From the UHGV virus genome UHGV-0287771: 25,755 bases of DNA, one strand, 5' to 3'. The stretch is from a virus. The translations under genes and the position numbers were made by a program. Shown here in pieces: positions 537 through 25,755 of the stretch; within the stretch, counting starts at the first letter, position 1, and each line of letters opens with the position of its first letter. The notes under the pieces are model-generated. The model was not told where the DNA came from, searched no databases, and saw only the letters and a list, made by a program, of their open reading frames with translations.

Positions 537-721
537 TGCTTAGCCCATCCCAATCCCTTCAATACCAGAAAGAAAGCGTCGAGCGGGCTTTAACGTGCGC
601 TAACTGCGGTCAGAAGCTGCATGTGCTGGAAGTTCACGTATGTGAGCGTTGTATATATGAATGCTTAAATATGGTGGAACATAATGAGAAATATAAGCAA
701 CATAGACGAATTAAGAAATAA
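536..721 (+). CDS. small Cys-rich (CxxC...CxxC, zinc-ribbon-like) nin-region protein, 61 aa; C-terminal codons run into the AT-rich insertion
   Basis: ORF with two CxxC pairs (CANCGQ...CERC); start overlaps the stop of the previous ORF; its last ~12 codons overlap the HNH gene start. Confidence 0.4.
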   Translation: MLSPSQSLQYQKESVERALTCANCGQKLHVLEVHVCERCIYECLNMVEHNEKYKQHRRIKK

Positions 722-1190
722 ATTATCATATGATGATGTTTTAGGTGTACTTAGATGGAAAGTGTCTCCTTCTAATAATGTTAAGGTTGGCAGTGTTGCT
801 GGTTACATTAGGAGTGATGGTTATAGGATGTTAACTATCGATGGTGTAATTACTTATGCTCACCACGTTATATGGATGATAAATAATGGTGAGATTCCAT
901 TAGGGTATAAAATTGATCATATAAATGGAGTAAGGTCAGATAATAGGCTATCTAATCTTCGATTGGTTACACACCAACAGAATGCACAGAACCAAAAGAG
1001 AAAAATAACCAATTCGTCAGGAGTGACTGGAGTATATTTCAATAAAGAGAGATGTAAGTGGATTGCGAATATATGCGTAGATGGGCGCACCAAATATCTT
1101 GGAATATTTGCTAGCATCATTGACGCTATTGCAGAAAGGAAGAGGGCAGAAAAAGAACTGGGTTTTCATGAAAACCATGGTAGACCATAA
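684..1190 (+). CDS. HNH-AP2 family homing endonuclease (free-standing, AT-rich insertion)
   Basis: Translation carries an HNH motif (GYKIDHINGVRSDNRLSNLRLVTHQQN) followed by an AP2-like DNA-binding segment (SGVTGVYFNKERCKWIANICVDGRTKYLGIF); marked AT-rich composition against GC-balanced neighbours. Confidence 0.8.
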   Translation: MRNISNIDELRNKLSYDDVLGVLRWKVSPSNNVKVGSVAGYIRSDGYRMLTIDGVITYAHHVIWMINNGEIPLGYKIDHINGVRSDNRLSNLRLVTHQQNAQNQKRKITNSSGVTGVYFNKERCKWIANICVDGRTKYLGIFASIIDAIAERKRAEKELGFHENHGRP

Positions 1191-5406: not shown

Positions 5407-5886
5407 ATGACTCAGCATATTGGCGTAAAATTGATTAACGCCTTTCCGATGACGAGACAGGCATATAACGATTTTCGTGGCTGGCAGCTTCCTGCCGGAG
5501 AAAACGGCGAGGACGAAGGCTATCTGGTTGAATATCTGGATGGCGGAAAACCTAACACCGATCGCTTTGATGGCTACGTTAGCTGGAGTCCAAAAGAAGT
5601 ATTCGAAAAGGCTTATCGTCCGGTATCAGGGTTAAGTTTCGGCCTTGCCATGGAAGCGTTAAAACAGGGCAAAAGTTTGCAGCGGGCAGGATGGAATGGG
5701 AAAGACCAGTTTGTTTATCTCGTGAAAGGGGAAAAATTAGCGTCTGCGTTGGGTTATGGCTTTGGCGAATATGTTGGCGAGCCAACTTTCAATGACACGC
5801 TTGTATTGAAAAACTCACAGAACCGCCTTGCTACATGGGTTCCATCCATTGGCGACCTGATGGCTGAAGACTGGCAAATCATTTAA
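5407..5886 (+). CDS. DUF2829-like (Tad2-like) domain protein with ~70-aa N-terminal extension
   Basis: C-terminal two-thirds carries the pattern recalled for DUF2829 (LSFGLAMEALKQGKSLQRAGWNGK ... WVPSIGDLMAEDWQII). Confidence 0.55.
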   Translation: MTQHIGVKLINAFPMTRQAYNDFRGWQLPAGENGEDEGYLVEYLDGGKPNTDRFDGYVSWSPKEVFEKAYRPVSGLSFGLAMEALKQGKSLQRAGWNGKDQFVYLVKGEKLASALGYGFGEYVGEPTFNDTLVLKNSQNRLATWVPSIGDLMAEDWQII

Positions 5887-18047: not shown

Positions 18048-20441
18048 ATGGCTAATTACCGTGATTTGTTAGAGCAGGCTGGCGCACGTTACGGTGTGCC
18101 AGAAGGGTTGATGACTGCACTGGGTGCCAAGGAGTCTTCTTACAACCCTGCCGCAGTAAGCTCCGCCGGGGCTGTAGGATTGACTCAGGTCATGCCTGGG
18201 ACATGGCGTGATATGGGTTATACCGATGAGCAAATGCAAAACCCCGAATATCAGGCTGACGCTGGCGCGCGCTATCTGGCAAAGATGTACCAGCAGTTTG
18301 GTAACTGGCGTGACGCTCTTCAGGCTTATCATGACGGTCCCGGCAACGTTATGAAGGCAAAGCGTGGTGAATATACGCCAGGACCTGAAGGCCGCGGTTA
18401 CGTTGATGATCGCTTTGCTCAATGGGCGGGTGACCCGGTGACAGACTCAACAGTCGAACAGCGCGCCACCTCTGCAAAGGTACATCCTCAGCAAGACCCT
18501 AACAACCCGTTTGCACAACTGGAAGCACAGTCATCCGAACAAGTATCGGCATCAGGCGTGCAGTCAGACCCAAATAATCCATTTGCTCAGATTGAGCAGC
18601 AGGCAGCCAGTCAGCAGCCACCTCAACCCGTAAGTTCTGTCGCACCGAAACCTGTTCAGCAGCAAGGCGGAATAATGTCTGACCTTGGTAATGGACTTGC
18701 TGAAACCGGGCGCGGCTTACTACAGGCAGGAATCAACGTAGCGAACATACCTGCTGAACTCACTGATGCTGTAACAAGCGCGGCGGCTTGGGCTGGCGGT
18801 AAACTCGGCATTGGCGATGGTACATATCAACCAGCACCACGAGTAACAACGCAGGGATTAGAGCAGGACTTTGGCCTTCAGCAAGGCGCGCTGACTCCAC
18901 AAACGACAGAGGGAAGGGTATTTGCCGAAGCATTGCCTTACCTCACTCCTGCTGGCGTTGAGAGAGCGGCAACACAGGCACCAACACTTGCTGGTCGAAT
19001 TGCTCAGGGGGCAACTCGCCTTCTAGCAGAAAACGCAGTTGGTTCACTTGCTGCAAACAGTGCGAAAGATGATGCGGAAGCACTCGCCACCGATTTAGGC
19101 GTTGGTGTGCTGGCTGGCGGTGCTATTAACGCTGCCGGACGTGGATTAGGTGCTGCTTATCGTGGTGTTCGTGGTTCGATAGCACCAGAAGCTCAACAGG
19201 CTATCAGGTTTGCAGAGCGTGAAGGAGTTCCTCTGCACACCACAGACCTGTTACAGCCTACTTCCCGCGCCGGGAAAATGGCGCAGACTACAGCAGAAAA
19301 TATCCCCCTGGCTGGCACAAGCGGAATGAGAGCAACGCAACAGGAAGCGAGAATCCAGTTGGTGCAGAGATTTGCCGATAAATTCGGTGAGTATGATCCA
19401 GCGGTTGTTATTGACAGCCTTAAAGCGAAAACATCAGGAATTCGTCGTGCCGCCGGTAATCGACTGGAGCAGGTTCAGAATGCTATGGCTGGAGTAAACA
19501 TTCAGCCTGCGCGAGCAATTCAGCAGATTGATACAGAAATATCTAATCTGCAGAAGCTTGGTAAGGTCGCCGATAACGAGACTATTTCAAAACTTCAGTC
19601 CTATCGTGATGAGCTTGTTCGCAATGCTGGTCCTGATGGTCCGGTAAATCTGGATTTGAAGCAATTAAGCGATCTGCGCAGCCAGTTCAGAATGGACGTG
19701 AAGGGGGAACGACCAGTGTTGCCAAACCGTTCCGATGCTGCCATTCAGCGCGTTTACAAGGCGATGACAGACGATATCAATGGTGCCATTGGTCAGAATC
19801 TTGGCAACGATACTCTCCGTAAATATCAGCAGGCCAATGCCGTCTACGCTGACGAAGCGGCGAAACTAAAGAATACCAGGCTGAAGAATGTTCTCATGAA
19901 AGGCGACCTGACGCCGGAAGTTGTCAACAACATGCTATTCAGCAAGAACAAATCGGAAATTAAGACGCTGTATAACTCAGTTGGTCGTGTTGGCAGGGCG
20001 CAAATGCGCAATGGCATCATTGGAAAGGCGATGGAGAAATCAGGTGGTTCCCCTGACCAGTTCCTTCGGCAGCTTAACATCCTGCAAAACCAGACTGGCA
20101 TCACATTTAAGGGGCAGGACGCTGCTTATCTGAAAGGATTAAAAAACTATCTGCAATCCACGCAGCAGGCTGCAAAAGCAGCAGTAACAACACCCACAGG
20201 GCAGCAAACTATCCCGTTCATTATTGGGTATGGGACGGCAATGAACCCGGCGACAACTGGCGCAGCAGTAAGCTACGGACTTCTTACTCGCGCCTATGAG
20301 AGCGAGCCATTCAGAAATGCAATGCTCCGAATGGCAAACACCCCACGCGGATCTACAGCGTTTGAGAAAGCCATGCAGCAAGCGCAAAAAGCGATTAATG
20401 CACTGACGCAGGGTGCTAAGTCTGATTCGTTGTCAGAATAG
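18048..20441 (+). CDS. DNA ejection/internal protein gp16-like with N-terminal lytic transglycosylase (SLT) domain
   Basis: 797 aa; N-terminal SLT signature (GLMTALGAKESSYNPAAVSSAGAVGLTQVMPGTW...YHDGPG); last gene of the ejection-protein trio. Confidence 0.75.
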   Translation: MANYRDLLEQAGARYGVPEGLMTALGAKESSYNPAAVSSAGAVGLTQVMPGTWRDMGYTDEQMQNPEYQADAGARYLAKMYQQFGNWRDALQAYHDGPGNVMKAKRGEYTPGPEGRGYVDDRFAQWAGDPVTDSTVEQRATSAKVHPQQDPNNPFAQLEAQSSEQVSASGVQSDPNNPFAQIEQQAASQQPPQPVSSVAPKPVQQQGGIMSDLGNGLAETGRGLLQAGINVANIPAELTDAVTSAAAWAGGKLGIGDGTYQPAPRVTTQGLEQDFGLQQGALTPQTTEGRVFAEALPYLTPAGVERAATQAPTLAGRIAQGATRLLAENAVGSLAANSAKDDAEALATDLGVGVLAGGAINAAGRGLGAAYRGVRGSIAPEAQQAIRFAEREGVPLHTTDLLQPTSRAGKMAQTTAENIPLAGTSGMRATQQEARIQLVQRFADKFGEYDPAVVIDSLKAKTSGIRRAAGNRLEQVQNAMAGVNIQPARAIQQIDTEISNLQKLGKVADNETISKLQSYRDELVRNAGPDGPVNLDLKQLSDLRSQFRMDVKGERPVLPNRSDAAIQRVYKAMTDDINGAIGQNLGNDTLRKYQQANAVYADEAAKLKNTRLKNVLMKGDLTPEVVNNMLFSKNKSEIKTLYNSVGRVGRAQMRNGIIGKAMEKSGGSPDQFLRQLNILQNQTGITFKGQDAAYLKGLKNYLQSTQQAAKAAVTTPTGQQTIPFIIGYGTAMNPATTGAAVSYGLLTRAYESEPFRNAMLRMANTPRGSTAFEKAMQQAQKAINALTQGAKSDSLSE

Positions 20442-20531
20442 CCTTTCAAACACCAGGAACGTGCAAAAACCAAATATGTAGAACGCGAGGTTTATCGTAT
20501 CCCTCTGCATAGGCGATACCTTTGCTGATTG

Positions 20532-21017
20532 TTATCTGATGTTACTGCTACTGTTGCATGTTACCGTGTTTTCAAATCCTGAATTGCAGTTTGTATATGT
20601 GTCAACGCGTGTTGGGTAAGGTTGAGTTATAACAGGCTGGCGCGCTTTTTGCTCAATTGCTTGCATAGTGTTTACAGCCTGATAATTCAATAAAGCCTGC
20701 TGGAATGCTTGGCTTTGTGCTATTTGTTGGGCTTGTTCTTGGCTTTGTAATTGAACATAAAGATTCTGAAGCTCAAGTCTTGCCTGTGCGTCACTTATCT
20801 TGCCTTCATCGACACCTTGCCCGAGCATCTTTGCAGCAAGGACATACAGCTTAGGTGTTGGTGCTGATGCCATGCGTGAGTCGTTTTTCACACTGGCATC
20901 AAGGCAATTAGCCATATCGCTAAGCTTTTGATAGCGTTGTTCGCAACTTGCTTGATAGTCACTTACTTTTGCGCATCCAACCAGCAGAATCGGGATAATT
21001 AACAGTGATTTTTTCAT
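20532..21017 (-). CDS. lipoprotein (candidate superinfection-exclusion/moron protein), 161 aa
   Basis: Strong SD AAGGAGAG 8 nt upstream of ATG (minus strand, 21017); signal peptide with lipobox MKKSLLIIPILLVGC; Gln-rich helical body; in the slot of the P22 sieA/immI region. Confidence 0.7.
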   Translation of the reverse strand: MKKSLLIIPILLVGCAKVSDYQASCEQRYQKLSDMANCLDASVKNDSRMASAPTPKLYVLAAKMLGQGVDEGKISDAQARLELQNLYVQLQSQEQAQQIAQSQAFQQALLNYQAVNTMQAIEQKARQPVITQPYPTRVDTYTNCNSGFENTVTCNSSSNIR

Positions 21018-21087
21018 ATGGTTAACTCTCCTTAGTTTTTCACAGGATATCATGAAGGCAATACCATTTTAGCCGGAAACTAGATTT

Positions 21088-21357
21088 CTATGTTTCCTTT
21101 TTATTATTGCTATACATGGTCTTAAGCGTATCAAAGACAATTTTCTTAACTATCTCAGATTGTTGTTCTGCCATACGCTCTGCATCGTCAATGTAAACAG
21201 ATGCAGAGCTTTGTTTAGCCAATGATTCTTCAATCGCTGCAATTATCTCTGAGTTCAGAGACCTGTTATTCATCTTCGCACGCTGTTTAATTTTCGCGTG
21301 GAGTTCATGCGGAAGTCTCAAGTGAAACTGCGCCTCGTCGTATTTGCTGTACATCAT
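21088..21357 (-). CDS. mnt: Mnt-like ribbon-helix-helix repressor (Arc/MetJ family)
   Basis: Translation matches recalled P22 Mnt along its length (RSLNSEII ... DDAERMAEQQSEIVKKIVFDTLK vs RSMNSELL ... NDAERLADEQSELVKKMVFDTLK); start placed at the Met preceded by an SD-like GTGAGG. Confidence 0.8.
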   Translation of the reverse strand: MMYSKYDEAQFHLRLPHELHAKIKQRAKMNNRSLNSEIIAAIEESLAKQSSASVYIDDAERMAEQQSEIVKKIVFDTLKTMYSNNKKET

Positions 21358-21489
21358 TGATGCCTCACCAGTTGGGTGGAATGGCATCGTAAAACCTACT
21401 GGATAAATCAACAATCGTACCACTTCGGTATGTAACTATAGCTTACCGCAGCTCTGCTGTGGGGATTAATTTCGCCTGGAGCACATCAA

Positions 21490-23763
21490 ATGACTGATAC
21501 CAATTACCTGGTCTCTATGCCGTCCACTCCTTTTTCGGCGCCACGAGCATTTAAGTCAGTGGCGAACGGGAAAATCTACATCGGAAACCCTGACACTGAT
21601 CCGGTAAATCCTGCCAACCAAATCCCGGTATATGTCGTTAATGAGGATGGCTCCGAGGTTCAGGTTTCACAGCCAATCATCATTAACGCCGGCGGCTTTC
21701 CGGTCTATAACGGCCAGATTATGAAGTTCATCACGAAACAGAACTTCAGTATGGCGGTCTATGACGCATATGGAGCGCAGCAATTTTATTGGCCCGATTT
21801 ATCTCGCATAGATCCAGATACAGCATACAACACCATCATAAATAATATTGGCGCACAAGATGGACTGAAGTATGTTGGTCAGTGCTCAGATTTAACAGCT
21901 CTCAGGGCTATTGAGCCAACCGTTTCTAACCAGCGAATTAGTGTCGCTGCATACGCTCCCGGGTGGGCCTCGCTGACAGGTGCGCCTGTTGGCGGTGGTG
22001 AGTTTTATTATGACCCCAATGATACGACATCTTCTGATGACGATATTTTTATTTTTGTAACGGCTGGCGGTAAGCGCTGGAAGCGTGCTTGCTCCGGCAA
22101 AAAAATCTGCCTGGAATGGAAAGGGGTAAGGCCTGGTGATGATGCAGCTCCGGCATTAAATGCTATCGGCACTTACCTGAATAACAAGGCCATCGCAAAA
22201 GGTACTGTTTCCGGGCTTCCTCGAGTGCATGTCGGCGCAGGCGTTTACCCCCTGTCAGATACTGTCAACCTCACATACGCATTTCGCATAAAGGCGGTTG
22301 GTAATGTAGAATTTACGACAACGGACTGGGATAGCACGGTTGCAAAAGATATTTTCACTATCGCTAACCCTGCAAATATGCCTGCAGTTCCTGACAAGGG
22401 GTATGCAAGCGGTGACCCGTGGCTTAATGGTTCTGATGGCACCATTTTAATCACTGGTCCCGTCTATGATGCTGCGGTCACAAACAATGTGGTTGGCGTT
22501 GGTGTGGGAAACCTCGTCACCGGGCGGACGCCCGTTCGTGGTAATGTGATGCATGGCGTTTCAATCCGTTACTGTGGCAGTGCGATTTACCTGCGCATGC
22601 GTCGTCTGTACCTGACGTCATTTAGTCATGTTCACTGCGAGCTTAATAACACACATATTACCTGTCCTAACCAGTCAGGCACCGAAGACTCCGGGGAGCG
22701 TATTGCATTTCATGAGTGCGTTTTTGGCGGGTGCAGGAATCAGCACGTTTATGTATATATGACACCGGCTCTGCATTTTGAATCATGTTCATTCGACTTT
22801 GCTCAGGGGAGCGGTATTTATCTGGATGGGATATCTGAGTATGGTCTTTTTTCATTCACAAACTGCCATTTTGAGAACTTCAATAACTACCTTATTAATG
22901 CCCAGACCGGTTCTCGGGTCACTCTTCTGATTACTAATTGTGATGTATTCAATAACAGCCAGACTACGCCGGTTACCGCAGCATCTGCTTCATCCCCTTC
23001 CCGTCCTATGTTTAATCTTGCCAACGGCGGGAATGTGGTTATTAACGGATTTAAACTGAACTATTCATATCGACCTCTTGGTTCATTGAATATGCTGGTT
23101 TCGCCCGAGACACAAACTGCAGATACAAGAACACGAGTATCAGTTAACGGACTGACGGCGGGTGATAAGTCAATGACACCGTGCCCCGCAGCAGCGCATA
23201 TCATGAACCGATCAAATGATTTTAGCGGGGAAACTGTGGGTTCCACAATTACCAGCAAAATCGCATACACAACAACACATGTTCAGCCAGTACAGGACAT
23301 TGCAAGTTCGTGGGGCTCAGGGATGTCCGCATCTGTTGTCGCTGACGGTAGCACAAAGGGTTTGCAGATGGTGTCAGCAGACAATACTAACTTCGGTTAC
23401 ATTCAGCCAAAAACTGCGATTCCTGTTTCGCCAGGGCGCGCCTACTCAGCATATTTCAGTATCCAGAAGTTGCTGGCGGCTGGCGGAATCAACTGGTCTG
23501 TGAGCTATCTGTGGTACGACAAAGACGGGAACCTGTTATCTAACGATAGAGCTCTGTCAGGTCGGTTTTCCAGTGTATATAACGACACGACATTGCCGGG
23601 ATATTCAACAGATGCTACAGCAAACGGTAATAGAAAGTTGAGCACAACCATGTGCGTACGCATTGCGCCCCCCGGCGCTGCTTACTGTCGCCCATACTTT
23701 AGTGTGTCGTCGTTTACTGGAACTATAAATATCGTCAATTTTTTGATGTGGGAGTATCAGTAA
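21490..23763 (+). CDS. tailspike protein (P22 gp9-type N-terminal head-binding domain with divergent receptor-binding body)
   Basis: First ~110 aa resemble recalled P22 tailspike N-terminus ([35 protein letters not shown]...); remainder is beta-rich (Asn/Gly/Thr/Ser-rich) without recognised identity. Confidence 0.85.
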
Positions 23764-23981
23764 TGAATATCTATCTTGAGCCAGGCACCAGCAATGTGTT
23801 TGTTCTCTCCCCGGAATCTCCGGGGGAGGCGTACGAACACATTGGCGAGGTCAGTGATGATGTATCGCTGTCCCCTGTCATTCCTGATGAAATCTATGAA
23901 GTAATAGCGGCGTATAACGAAAGCCTTTTATCTACTGGGCTTGAGCTGAACATGAGAGGGTCATATTCCTCCTCCAATTGA
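23763..23981 (+). CDS. hypothetical acidic protein, 72 aa, translationally coupled to the tailspike
   Basis: ATG 23763 overlaps the tailspike stop (TAATG); acidic composition; no family recognised. Confidence 0.45.
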   Translation: MNIYLEPGTSNVFVLSPESPGEAYEHIGEVSDDVSLSPVIPDEIYEVIAAYNESLLSTGLELNMRGSYSSSN

Positions 23982-24019
23982 TAGATATAACCTGTCTTGA
24001 TCAGTCAATTCACAACATA

Positions 24020-24039
24020 TACTGTATATAAAAACAGTA
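24020..24039 (+). promoter_or_regulatory. LexA operator (SOS box) overlapping a likely promoter
   Basis: TACTGTATATAAAAACAGTA: CTGT-N8-ACAG with AT-rich spacer, a near-perfect match to the E. coli LexA box consensus TACTG(TA)5CAGTA; 15 nt upstream of the next start codon. Confidence 0.75.
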
Positions 24040-24054
24040 TTGTCGGGTGTGGAT

Positions 24055-24294
24055 ATGATAAGACGTAACGCCATAGCGGAGGCTTTCAGAGCCTCCATTT
24101 CTATAAATCCTAAAGGTTATCAATACCTTTACACGGATTCTTTCATCTCCGAACTACAGCGGAGGGGTATCCATTTCTCAGAGAAGGAGGCTAACAACTG
24201 GATATCGAGAGAGCAGACGTACTTTGTCGACAAGACGCCGGACCATAGCGAAAACAGGTTGTGGATGCTGGCGAATATGGGGAGGGTGATCTAA
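24055..24294 (+). CDS. hypothetical protein, 79 aa, first gene of the LexA-box operon
   Basis: ORF directly downstream of the LexA box; stop overlaps the start of the next gene (TAATG); function not recognised. Confidence 0.5.
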   Translation: MIRRNAIAEAFRASISINPKGYQYLYTDSFISELQRRGIHFSEKEANNWISREQTYFVDKTPDHSENRLWMLANMGRVI

Positions 24295-24611
24295 TGGGCT
24301 TTCCTTCACCCGCGACGGATTACGTTGAGCAGCGACTGTCCGTTAACTCGATCTGCAATGTCGGCCCTAACACCCGCGTTTTCGAAAGGGATGGCGGTTA
24401 TGTTGTGCTGGATATTTCCCTGAAGCCAAAGCAGGGTAGTCAGGTTCTGATCCAGCACGGCGGCGGTACGGAGCTTGCCACGCTGAGAGGAAAGTCACTG
24501 ATAACCGAAGACGGCGAAGCGATCGAGGGAGATGCTCTCGACGATGTCACTGTCATCGGTGTCGTGACGTTTACTATCTGCGATGTTCGTTCTGATAATT
24601 CTATTATTTAA
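24294..24611 (+). CDS. UmuD'-like (S24 LexA/UmuD-family fold) protein, apparently lacking the catalytic Ser
   Basis: Starts M-GFPSPATDYVEQR, matching the UmuD/MucA motif GFPSPAADYVEQR just after the UmuD self-cleavage site; GGGGAGGG SD 7 nt upstream; no G-D-S-M serine motif seen by eye, Lys retained in RGKSL. Confidence 0.6.
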   Translation: MGFPSPATDYVEQRLSVNSICNVGPNTRVFERDGGYVVLDISLKPKQGSQVLIQHGGGTELATLRGKSLITEDGEAIEGDALDDVTVIGVVTFTICDVRSDNSII

Positions 24612-24622
24612 CTGGGGTATAT

Positions 24623-25288
24623 ATGGCGCTGAAGCTATTAGCCAATAATAACGCAAAGAGTGTTCTCGCTGCGGGTATTAGCGCGTCCGCTACCGTTATT
24701 ACCGTGGGGTCGGGTGCAGGTGCTTTATTCCCCGCGCCGGTATCGGGAGAAAGCTATTTCAAATTAACGGTAACCGACGCCGCAACGAAAACAATCAACG
24801 AAATTATGCATGTCACATCTGTATCTGGTGACGTGATGACGGTAATTCGTGGTCAGGAAGGAACCACGGCGCGCGTATGGTCAACGAATGACATTGTCGC
24901 AAATTTAATGACCGCCGGCTCATTGTTATCGTTCCTGCAGATCAGCAATAACCTGTCAGAAATTAAAGATGCCGGTGAGGATGCGGTAAATGAAGCCCGT
25001 TATAACCTCGGAATATCTGATTCCTCTGGTTTTGTCGGGCGTTCTCTTGGCGCTCCAAAAGCGTTCTATGCAAACGGCACCTATACGCGCTCTCCTCTGG
25101 CCCGTTATGCAAAAGTAACGTTGGTCGGAGGTGGCGGCGGCGGTGGCCGGGCGGGTTCTCAGGCCGGTATTGCTGGCGCAGCTCCCGGATCCGGTGGTGG
25201 TGGCGCGTATGACCTTGGGTTTACCGGTACGGCATTTACCGGTGGTGATGGTGCTACTGGCATGGCGATCGTGGAAGAATTCGCGTAA
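24623..25288 (+). CDS. Gly-rich protein, 221 aa; N-terminal part reminiscent of phage fibre N-termini; possibly a truncated gene
   Basis: ORF 11 nt after the UmuD'-like gene; C-terminal poly-Gly/Gly-X stretch (VGGGGGGGRAGSQAGIAGAAPGSGGGG...); followed by ~430 bp without a convincing ORF before the att core. Confidence 0.5.
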   Translation: MALKLLANNNAKSVLAAGISASATVITVGSGAGALFPAPVSGESYFKLTVTDAATKTINEIMHVTSVSGDVMTVIRGQEGTTARVWSTNDIVANLMTAGSLLSFLQISNNLSEIKDAGEDAVNEARYNLGISDSSGFVGRSLGAPKAFYANGTYTRSPLARYAKVTLVGGGGGGGRAGSQAGIAGAAPGSGGGGAYDLGFTGTAFTGGDGATGMAIVEEFA

Positions 25289-25717
25289 TGGCTTACACTC
25301 CTGCACGACCATCGATGTAATCAGCCCACCACTGCATCATCTACCTGCGCTTATCGAGATACTGAGCATGGTTGTAAATCCCACGCACAGATCCGCCGTT
25401 GGCATGAGCGAGTTGCACTTCGATAGTTTCGTGATGCACCAAGTGATCAAAGTCATGAAATTTAACATCCAAGCCTCCATCGATCGATACTTGCGGTAGT
25501 TGATAAGGAAAAACTATGGTACACAAAGCGTTGCACTGGATTGCAAGGCTTTGTGCTCTTCTGTGGATGTGTGGCTACATGTTTGAAGATCGTTGTGCCG
25601 CATTTGTGACATACACATGACAACATCATGCATCAACTTTCTGTTTGTGCCATCAACTATAGCTTAGTGAATGCGGTTAATGCTTGCTAAAACAGATAGT
25701 TATGATTGGTGCTACAG

Positions 25718-25755
25718 ATTCGTAATGCGAAGGTCGTAGGTTCGACTCCTATTAT
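25718..25755 (+). other. 3' portion of a tRNA-Thr(CGU)-like gene (anticodon loop, T-arm); candidate attR core, truncated by the window end
   Basis: ATTCGTAATGCGAAGGTCGTAGGTTCGACTCCTATTAT contains the anticodon-loop sequence with CGT and a canonical T-arm GGTTCGACTCC; the 5' half of a tRNA is absent upstream (sequence diverges before 25718). Confidence 0.6.

Follow-up and report, generated by a model that had tools for sequence, protein, structure and literature searches.

In phage P22, the immI region fills the slot between gene 16 and gene 9 and carries mnt, antisense to the late operon, and Pmnt and Pant with the Mnt and Arc operators, along with arc, sar, ant, an ant terminator and sieA. 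The role of Mnt in P22 lysogens is to silence the antirepressor; His6, Asn8 and Arg10 are its contact residues, and Mnt stimulates Pmnt. Reduced forms of this region have been on record since 2008: mnt-only ant morons were described in ST64T, ST104 and Para1, together with late read-through into gene 9, and E. coli B7A was named in the legend to figure 3 of the same paper as a source of prophage sequence (Villafane 2008). The same orphan mnt was noted in the phage L genome paper, which raised a functionless remnant as one possibility. The arrangement reported below is of this described kind and is common in E. coli prophages: it is found in 101 of 5,426 complete E. coli genomes, and the mnt gene is kept in 486 of the 5,426.

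Organization of the locus

We analyzed a 25.7-kb stretch of a P22-like prophage (25,755 nucleotides; hereafter the window), in which an mnt-like gene and a lipoprotein gene lie on the minus strand between a gp16-like ejection gene, which has a Pfam SLT domain and ends at 20441, and the tailspike gene. As in the mnt-only ant morons, a variable, non-morphogenetic segment containing mnt and a gene of unassigned function is inserted between the homologues of gene 16 and gene 9. Its genes and hairpins are:

20532-21017, minus strand: lipoprotein gene, 161 aa from MKKSLL, with a predicted signal peptide and the lipobox LVGC (Cys15, Ala at +2)
21075-21108, plus strand: hairpin GGAAACTAG-ATTT-CTATGTTTCC with TTTTTATTATT after it, overlapping the mnt stop codon; resembles a terminator in the late-operon sense only
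21088-21357, minus strand: mnt-like gene, 89 aa from an MMYSK start, predicted RHH repressor with an Mnt tetramerisation domain
21446-21462, plus strand: gene-9 leader hairpin CCGCAGC-TCT-GCTGTGG, homologue of P22 CCGTAGC-CAT-GCTGCGG, about 25 nt upstream of gene 9
21490-23763, plus strand: tailspike gene, with a P22 head-binding domain and a beta-helix receptor domain (Pfam Head_binding and Beta_helix)

A preliminary description of this DNA had recognized an immI-type region with mnt present and arc and ant missing, an adjoining lipoprotein gene, the antisense orientation of both genes to the late genes, and a 132-bp spacer between mnt and the tailspike gene (21358-21489). We arrive at the same layout: Pfam recovers the Mnt domains, both genes are on the minus strand with the tailspike gene on the plus strand, and the search for ant and arc elsewhere that had been proposed, run here by tblastn within the window, returned neither arc nor ant, the latter with P22 and CUS-3 Ant and JEP4 Rha and KilA as queries. 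None of the other open reading frames in the window contains an ANT, Bro-N or KilA domain by Pfam, and no sar or other Rfam family was found in 20300-21800 at E <0.8, a result to be read with the reservation that Rfam may hold no sar model. The window excludes the early half of the prophage, where an ant-like target may lie.

The hairpin at the 3′ end of mnt folds with a dG of -8.7 kcal/mol (z -2.5) and has no U-tract after it in the mnt sense; P22 and epsilon34 have a stronger hairpin with a T-run at this position. No convincing intrinsic terminator was found 3′ of mnt or of the lipoprotein gene in their own sense. Both genes are on one strand, 70 bp apart, and no mnt-sense terminator intervenes, so that the mnt transcript probably enters the lipoprotein gene. 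The gene-9 leader hairpin is found in ST64T, JEP4, Gally and VSe13 as well; its G-U pairs hold on the plus strand only, and it is not the MFE fold of the local RNA. Homology of the tailspike module begins at 21444, and the hairpin is part of that module and not of mnt. The tailspike of the window itself has no match among the 5,426 complete E. coli genomes.

The locus resembles P22 immI in its slot between gene 16 and gene 9, the antisense mnt, an Mnt with both domains, a candidate operator at the same offset from the mnt start and the Pmnt -35, the gene-9 leader hairpin, and a late-sense hairpin with a T-run at the mnt 3′ end. Unlike P22, it is without arc, sar, ant, the ant terminator and sieA, its Pant hexamers are degenerate, its Mnt reads Q-H-R rather than H-N-R, and its candidate operator has the core GGTA in place of GGAC and lower symmetry. 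The mnt-only morons of ST64T, ST104, L and ST160 likewise have an orphan mnt divergent from the tailspike gene across a spacer of ~135 bp, one extra gene of unassigned function, the same gene-9 leader hairpin, and a candidate operator at the same place. However, theirs is the Q-N-R class of Mnt with a near-perfect palindromic operator, the accompanying gene is a different one, and these are Salmonella phages, from a different host genus. The E. coli B7A prophage, Shigella phage Sf101 (gp14) and phage IME10 carry an mnt of the same class as the window (class III) that is 90-95% identical. The lipoprotein is shared by B7A too, with a 95% match over window positions 20447-21432, whereas Sf101 and IME10 are without the lipoprotein, and the gene-9 leader and tailspike differ in most of this group.

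The Mnt-like repressor is intact and constrained

Judged by its domains, the product of 21088-21357 is a tetrameric RHH repressor of the Mnt family. Pfam Arc (PF03869, 6.8e-15) covers the N-terminal RHH region at residues 8-50 and Repressor_Mnt (PF11423, 6.6e-13) the C-terminal tetramerisation domain at residues 58-82; the best solved relatives are P22 Mnt (1MNT, 2.4e-19), to which the protein is 49% identical, and the tetramerisation domain of P22 Mnt (1QEY, 4.6e-07). Weak Pfam matches to HicB and FitA were also seen. Most relatives and RefSeq start the gene one codon later than MMYSK. The PHROG/RefSeq name "partition protein ATPase" is a mis-annotation, as the protein has 89 aa and is without an ATPase domain. 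Its other RefSeq/PHROGs name is only "Arc family DNA-binding protein". The recognition strand A-Q-F-H-L-R-L-P places it in class III, with the residues Q-H-R.

The mnt reading frame is intact in all 81 copies compared. Its dN/dS is 0.059 in the RHH domain and 0.115 over codons 1-75, values that place mnt under strong purifying selection, and the conserved part of the spacer diverges by 0.052 per site versus a dS of 0.12-0.14. An R to I change in the recognition strand occurs at two loci. Together with the lipoprotein gene (dN/dS 0.056), mnt is clearly kept by selection.

A candidate operator and promoter in P22 geometry

Alignment with the annotated operator and Pmnt of P22 points to two elements in the spacer:

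21416-21432, no strand: candidate Mnt operator CGTACC-ACTTC-GGTATG, 17 bp, from its position as in P22 and covariation
21386-21414, minus strand: inferred Pmnt, -35 TTGTTG (21414-21409), 17 nt, -10 TACGAT (21391-21386)

The center of the candidate operator is 67 bp from the mnt ATG, versus 66 bp in P22, and the element lies 2 bp from the -35, as in P22. Its TACC-N5-GGTA core occurs once in the window, with 0.07 copies expected, and neither the window nor the whole Sf101 genome holds a second copy of the operator pattern. In a survey of 251 loci, the half-site core GGAC, GGTC or GGTA covaries with the recognition residues H-N-R, Q-N-R or Q-H-R, respectively: the operator AGGTCCAC-N-GTGGACCT goes with H-N-R Mnt, AAGACCAC-N-GTGGTCTT with Q-N-R Mnt (class II), and CATACCGA-A-(A/G)TGGTAC with Q-H-R Mnt (class III). 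The class II orphan operators are symmetric at 7-8 of 8 positions with a free central base, which shows that selection can preserve the operator of an orphan Mnt. The 17-mer of the window is symmetric at 5 of 8 positions (class III operators, 4-6 of 8); taken by itself, this symmetry is no better than chance. Polymorphism affects the distal arm in ~10 of the 85 class III loci. The class III loci are closely related, so that conservation inside the class carries little weight alone.

The operator that had first been proposed is an inverted repeat, GGTATGTAACTATAGCTTACC, which does exist at 21427-21447 and does not hold up in that role. Only 6 of its 10 arm positions pair, 91% of spacer shuffles hold an inverted repeat at least as good (mean 2.3 per spacer), and a repeat search of the sequence did not report it. 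Homology with the ~100 E. coli prophages sharing this mnt stops at 21432-21436, inside the repeat; most class III spacers lack its right arm, ATAGCTTACC, and in VSe13 this arm is broken. The repeat overlaps only the right arm, GGTATG, of the element at 21416-21432, which by position and covariation is the better operator candidate.

The inferred Pmnt is the positional homologue of the annotated P22 Pmnt, TTGAGA-17-TATCAT, and the ATCGTA within it is invariant in 27 unique spacers. By consensus it is weak and below the scan threshold, and the best hexamers of most relatives are separated by 15 nt. A consensus scan found no sigma-70 promoter on either strand of the spacer. The stretch homologous to Pant is degenerate, reading ATGGCA-16-ATAAAT in the window, with 14-bp spacing in most class III loci, and the corresponding class II hexamers are TCGGCA-17-TATATC or TGCATC. 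No tailspike promoter is evident in the spacer, and the earlier suggestion that Mnt regulates one finds no positive support in the degenerate Pant homologue and the empty promoter scan.

The lipoprotein

Two minus-strand elements precede the lipoprotein gene:

21026-21033, minus strand: Shine-Dalgarno sequence AAGGAGAG, 8 nt before the ATG at 21017, kept in VSe13 and Gally
21044-21052, minus strand: TG-extended -10-like element TGA-TATCCT, in VSe13 as TGG-TATCCT and not in Gally

The Shine-Dalgarno sequence and lipobox of the preliminary description are both borne out. The N-terminus, MKKSLLIIPILLVGC, is a signal peptide ending in a lipobox, [LVI][ASTVI][GAS]C, here L-V-G-C with Cys15, and in 29 homologues G14 is nearly invariant and C15 invariant; by this motif the product is a predicted lipoprotein and signal peptidase II substrate. 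The -10-like element was not found by the consensus scan; it is a possible, weakly evidenced, promoter of the lipoprotein gene itself. The protein has a helical N-terminal domain, a Gln-rich helix and a C-terminal beta-hairpin. Cys25, Cys38 and Cys154 are invariant, and most homologues have a further Cys near residue 144.

The protein belongs to phrog_6067 (6.5e-110), to which no function is assigned, and its 94 homologues across Enterobacterales are nearly all named "hypothetical". It matched no Pfam or PADLOC family, no NCBIfam above cut-off and no known toxin family, so that it does not form a recognizable type II toxin-antitoxin pair with the RHH protein, and Foldseek with an AF2 model (mean pLDDT 62) returned no PDB or BFVD match at E <=0.001. 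The superinfection-exclusion proteins T5 Llp and phi80/N15 Cor are likewise small lipoproteins. The gene resembles P22 sieA in encoding a prophage-orientated envelope protein directly after the ejection-protein genes, in the same slot; SieA, however, is an inner-membrane protein and not a lipoprotein, and there is no sequence or fold similarity between the two. A search for SieA gave no match at the lipoprotein locus and only a spurious tblastn match elsewhere in the window (E 0.068).

Spread of mnt and the lipoprotein among relatives

Neither arc nor ant is carried by any of the 168 class II or III loci (0/83 and 0/85), and ant is present at 82 of the 83 class I loci. The mnt gene is divergent from the tailspike gene at 78 of 79 class III and all 80 class II loci. 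Orphan mnt genes are found in the functional phages Sf101, ST64T and L as well; the complete phage Sf101 has the same mnt and no annotated ant. The lipoprotein gene is absent beside this mnt in 34 of 80 close relatives, and the junction between lipoprotein-carrying and lipoprotein-free forms falls inside the 3′ end of mnt. Morganella has the lipoprotein gene without mnt, and in Gally and Yersinia the gene accompanies a class II Mnt; in a Yersinia prophage, the gap between the two genes is 15 bp. Regulation of the lipoprotein, which had been suggested earlier, can therefore not be why mnt is kept. The two genes may be co-transcribed in the window.

The inserts between mnt and the tailspike gene in six related loci are HNH homing endonuclease genes, IS2 and an AT-rich insert rather than hidden ant genes. 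The VSe13 "antirepressor" is a fragment of 96 aa that does not significantly resemble P22 Ant, JEP4 Rha or KilA. In JEP4, a class III mnt shares its moron with Rha and KilA genes, which lie beside a C2-like repressor gene, convergent with mnt and not downstream of the operator.

Discussion

This locus is the mnt-only form of the P22-like ant moron, and we lean towards reading it, from its sequence and that of its relatives, as one in which Mnt, its operator and Pmnt would form a self-contained, autoregulated cassette and the lipoprotein gene would be an independent moron. Relative to P22, the segment with arc, sar, ant and the ant terminator is missing, and the operator would now lie ~12 bp from the conserved gene-9 leader hairpin. 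The repressor would have kept its own promoter, TTGTTG-17-TACGAT, as homology and covariation suggest, and its cognate 17-bp operator in P22 geometry, centered at about -45 from the inferred Pmnt start and abutting the -35. In the lysogen, Mnt made from Pmnt would bind the single operator and autoregulate Pmnt, with either sign, and the transcript would probably run on into the lipoprotein gene, for which an extended -10 promoter of its own may exist as well. The product of that gene would be a prophage-expressed envelope protein; since its position matches that of P22 sieA, superinfection exclusion is a reasonable guess, and only a guess. The tailspike would be expressed, as in P22, from late-operon transcripts that are antiterminated and read through the antisense cassette, with no promoter in the spacer.

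Autoregulation alone fails to explain why mnt is kept, as mnt has no moron downstream to drive in 34 of 80 relatives. We consider it possible, although somewhat doubtful, that the orphan class II and III Mnt proteins and their matching operators are a stand-alone module selected for some role other than antirepressor control. Such a role could be to gate or insulate the antisense moron-tailspike junction, with late read-through controlled by roadblock or collision, or it could be direct positive autoregulation from -45, which would drive prophage-expressed morons.

Several other explanations address what Mnt does here. Mnt could repress a rightward spacer promoter, a remnant of Pant, that reads into the tailspike gene, and so silence it in the lysogen or tune its level. 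Pant transcripts reportedly read through into gene 9, the operator sits where that of P22 covers the Pant start, and mnt is almost always divergent from the tailspike gene. The ant moron has also been noted to affect the amount of late transcription reaching gene 9, possibly with Mnt and Arc involved (Villafane 2008). However, the Pant-homologous hexamers are degenerate in the window and in both orphan classes, the scan found no plus-strand promoter in the spacer, and the HNH endonuclease genes and IS2 at the six related loci would separate such a promoter from the tailspike gene, which makes this account unlikely. We hold it equally unlikely that Mnt acts in trans, either silencing an antirepressor gene elsewhere, in its own or another prophage, or protecting the lysogen against ant-bearing superinfecting phages that share the operator. 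This would be Mnt's P22 role, antirepressor cross-talk between prophages is documented, strong purifying selection on mnt needs a reason, and JEP4 does combine Rha and KilA genes with a class III mnt. Yet these JEP4 genes do not lie downstream of the operator, arc and ant are missing from all 168 orphan-class loci, and the window and the whole Sf101 genome each have a single copy of the operator pattern.

A functionless mnt, left over from a lost immI region and now decaying, would fit the loss of arc, ant and sar, the degenerate Pant homologue, the poorly symmetric class III operator with its polymorphic distal arm, and the R to I change at two loci. We regard it as improbable given 81 intact frames out of 81, a dN/dS of 0.06 in the DNA-binding domain, retention in 486 of 5,426 E. 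coli genomes and in the functional phages Sf101, ST64T and L, and the near-perfect palindrome with a free central base in class II orphans. A dedicated two-gene unit, with Mnt and the lipoprotein as regulator and cargo or as RHH antitoxin and toxin, seems very improbable. The genes are adjacent on one strand with no terminator between them and only 15 bp apart in Yersinia, RHH proteins are commonly antitoxins, and there are the weak HicB and FitA matches; but the lipoprotein is absent beside the same mnt in 34 of 80 relatives, stands alone in Morganella and is paired with a class II Mnt in Gally and Yersinia, and the junction of the two forms lies inside the mnt 3′ end. Its signal peptide and conserved disulfide cysteines are moreover unlike cytoplasmic toxins, and PADLOC gave no match.

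The locus is an ordinary one, with its arrangement present in hundreds of sequenced E. coli prophages, and deserves modest weight. What our comparison adds is that the orphan mnt genes are not decaying but are intact and strongly constrained, that the Salmonella-type orphans keep a near-perfect palindromic operator, and that there are three Mnt specificity classes, with operator changes that track changes at two recognition residues. As a widespread, constrained and wholly uncharacterised prophage envelope protein in the slot of a known exclusion gene, the lipoprotein is a reasonable choice for phage-exclusion screens. The three natural classes form a one-residue-to-one-base RHH series, in which H to Q accompanies GGAC to GGTC and N to H accompanies GGTC to GGTA. 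They provide natural variants for studying DNA recognition by a beta-strand, and the question of why Mnt is kept without Ant can now be tested directly.

Gene content and distribution of the locus

The window comes from a P22-like (Lederbergvirus-type) prophage and covers its late region, running from nin genes through a Q-type antiterminator, lysis, terminase, portal, scaffold, coat and tail-accessory genes to the ejection genes; a few small genes and then the integrase end lie downstream of the tailspike. The interval between the gp16-like gene and the tailspike contains two ORFs, both on the opposite strand, and a 132-bp spacer separates mnt from the tailspike.

18048-20441, plus strand: gp16-like protein with an SLT domain, last of the ejection genes
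20532-21017, minus strand: 161-aa ORF, lipoprotein
21088-21357, minus strand: 89-aa ORF, Mnt
21490-23763, plus strand: tailspike, Head_binding and beta-helix

The 89-aa protein is an Mnt: it shares 49% identity with P22 Mnt and matches both Pfam Arc (6.8e-15) and the C-terminal domain specific to Mnt (6.6e-13), and its best solved relatives are P22 Mnt (1MNT, 2.4e-19) and the tetramerisation domain of Mnt (1QEY). No Arc or Ant homologue was found in the window by tblastn, and no Rfam family occurs around the mnt locus. The preliminary description of the genes (Mnt, a lipobox protein, the spacer length and the absence of Arc and Ant from the window) is confirmed as an observation, and its interpretation is supported in part. 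PHROG phrog_795 and RefSeq phage records name Mnt homologues ‘partition protein ATPase’, a propagated mis-annotation that P22 mnt itself bears in NC_002371.

The locus is of an ordinary type that is already in the literature: in Villafane et al. 2008 (PMC2629481), “ant moron” is the name given to the variable insert that separates genes 16 and 9. The 1,048-bp region has matches in 486 of 5,426 complete E. coli genomes, at least 80% of it being covered in 101 of these 486, and the match in E. coli B7A, which carries a related prophage, is 95% identical. RefSeq names the two genes “Arc family DNA-binding protein” and “hypothetical protein”. The same mnt adjoins the tailspike of Sf101, a temperate Shigella phage whose 38.7-kb genome has no annotated antirepressor.

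A candidate Mnt operator

With the mnt operator, Arc operator, Pant and Pmnt annotated in the P22 record as reference, we compared the sequences upstream of several Mnt genes by alignment. The position homologous to the P22 operator is occupied by:

21416-21432: candidate Mnt operator, CGTACC-ACTTC-GGTATG

Its centre lies 67 bp from the mnt ATG (66 bp in P22), and 2 bp separate it from a -35-like hexamer. The putative mnt-sense promoter reads TTGTTG-17-TACGAT, compared with TTGAGA-17-TATCAT for annotated P22 Pmnt. For each of 251 Mnt loci from IMG/VR and GenBank, we recorded the recognition strand, the divergent neighbour and the 17-mer found where the operator would lie.

Table. Mnt specificity classes: recognition strand; loci; operator-position 17-mer; partners
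Class I: PHFNFRMP; 83 loci; AGGTCCAC-N-GTGGACCT; ant in 82/83, arc as divergent neighbour in 75
Class II: PQFNLRLP; 80 loci (83 including recognition-strand variants); AAGACCAC-N-GTGGTCTT; mnt directly divergent from the tailspike in 80/80, arc or ant in none
Class III (window): AQFHLRLP; 79 loci (85 including recognition-strand variants); CATACCGA-A-(A/G)TGGTAC; mnt divergent from the tailspike in 78/79, arc or ant in none

The half-site core changes from GGAC to GGTC to GGTA as the strand residues change from H-N to Q-N to Q-H. Because N-terminal residues set the specificity of Arc and Mnt (Knight and Sauer 1989, as cited in PMC3325190), this covariation supports the candidate operator at 21416-21432. 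The class II 17-mer is symmetric at 7-8 of 8 positions with a free central base. Class III loci are close relatives of one another; their 17-mer is symmetric at just 4-6 of 8, by itself a chance level, and about 10 of 85 loci show variation in its distal arm. Across the 25.7-kb window there is a single copy of the core TACC-N5-GGTA, against 0.07 expected, and the fuller pattern is confined to the mnt locus in both the window and Sf101. In one related prophage, the target duplication of an IS2 element, GTATG, is the distal operator arm.

This candidate replaces the operator proposed in the preliminary description, an inverted repeat at 21427-21447 (GGTATGTAACTATAGCTTACC). Only 6 of the repeat’s 10 arm positions pair, 91% of shuffled spacers do as well or better, and its right arm is not conserved: the window shares it with just one near-identical locus, and phage VSe13 has it in broken form. 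Homology shared with E. coli prophages carrying the window mnt stops at 21432-21436, within the repeat, and tailspike-module homology starts at 21444. In an alignment of 27 distinct spacers, conservation extends from the mnt start up to ...GGTATG, with variable sequence past that point.

Putative promoters and hairpins in the spacer

P22 Mnt stimulates Pmnt. The candidate operator is centred about -45 from the putative Pmnt start, a geometry that fits autoregulation, whichever its sign. Control of a tailspike promoter by Mnt, as had been suggested, finds no positive evidence, since the Pant homologue is degenerate, a consensus scan detects no promoter in the mnt-tailspike spacer, and the spacer hairpin is a conserved gene-9 leader element. 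The Pant-homologous stretch reads ATGGCA-16-ATAAAT in the window, has a 14-bp spacer in most class III loci, and reads TCGGCA-17-TATATC or TGCATC in class II. The hairpin (21446-21462, plus strand, CCGCAGC-TCT-GCTGTGG), rejected as an Mnt feature, also lies just upstream of P22 gene 9; its pairing is kept with differing bases in P22, ST64T, JEP4 and VSe13, and its G-U pairs are valid on the plus strand only. Most class III relatives have ATGCAA-N11-TTGCAT in its place.

Homing endonuclease genes, IS2 or other DNA, none of it ant-like, lie between mnt and the tailspike in six related loci. HNH homing-endonuclease genes are inserted just within the tailspike 5′ end in related prophages, and another carries the IS2 insertion:

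L010, L044 and L058: 1772-2501
L015: 1831-2501
L046: 1025-2501

In phage JEP4 (L091, 2134-5066), a class III mnt shares the moron with Rha, KilA, a C2-like repressor and a small ORF; this moron may be a distinct second module of immunity type occupying that slot. In E. coli ZF8-1 (L003, 23917-36932), a P4-like element with integrase, HTH regulator, AntA/AntB antirepressor, Icd-like and DUF927 primase genes lies directly past the P22-like prophage.

The lipoprotein gene

The lipobox LVGC closes the signal peptide of the 161-aa protein, and AAGGAGAG precedes its gene. The protein falls in phrog_6067, a group annotated as of unknown function, and Pfam, NCBIfam and PADLOC assign it no family. Homologues occur across the Enterobacterales (Escherichia, Citrobacter, Serratia, Klebsiella, Cronobacter, Yersinia, Pectobacterium, Morganella and Providencia), with an invariant lipid cysteine, conserved Cys 25, 38 and 154, and a Cys near residue 144 in most; dN/dS is 0.056. 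In the AlphaFold model (mean pLDDT 62), which has no match in PDB or BFVD, the N-terminal domain is helical, with a long Gln-rich helix and a beta-hairpin at the C terminus.

The lipoprotein is modular relative to mnt: among 80 close relatives of this mnt, 34 are without it, and the junction between lipoprotein-bearing and lipoprotein-free forms falls within the 3′ end of mnt. In Gally and a Yersinia prophage it is paired with a class II Mnt (gap of 15 bp in Yersinia), and in a Morganella prophage it adjoins the tailspike without mnt. The gene always directly follows the gp16 homologue, the slot of P22 sieA, and from this position we would guess at a role in superinfection exclusion. Since the window has no mnt-sense terminator between mnt and the lipoprotein gene, co-transcription from the putative Pmnt is plausible. 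A TG-extended -10-like element at 21044-21052 is common to the window and VSe13. Over the mnt stop codon lies:

21075-21108, plus strand: hairpin and T-run, dG -8.7, z -2.5

It is terminator-like in the late-operon direction only; P22 and epsilon34 have a stronger hairpin and T-run at the matching position.

Other genes of the window

At the place where Sf101 carries a Rha-like gene, flanked by the lysis genes and DUF2560/terminase, the window has a 159-aa ORF (5407-5886, plus strand) that contains a Pfam Tad2-like (Thoeris anti-defence 2) domain (E 6.4e-22). An HNH_3 endonuclease gene (684-1190, plus strand) sits among the nin genes, with NinX and NinG on either side. The tailspike (21490-23763) combines a head-binding domain of the P22 type with a receptor domain that shares just 28-33% identity with Klebsiella phage capsule depolymerases (K11 gp17, K64-1 S1-1). 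This tailspike is absent from the 5,426 complete E. coli genomes; the host may therefore be encapsulated or other than E. coli. Four ORFs separate the tailspike from the integrase end (23748-25755): one of 77 aa, one for a phrog_3893 protein of 84 aa, one for an S24/UmuD/HumD-like peptidase with no DNA-binding domain (24261-24611) and one that is glycine-rich and tail-fibre-like (24623-25288).

Retention of the orphan repressor

The phage L genome paper, describing the same orphan mnt, left both a new function and a remnant possible. Each of the 81 ORFs of class III mnt is intact, the ribbon-helix-helix domain hardly varies (dN/dS 0.059; 0.115 over codons 1-75), and the conserved part of the spacer has diverged by 0.052, less than synonymous sites (0.12-0.14). 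Together, these sequence comparisons argue against class III orphan mnt being a decaying remnant.
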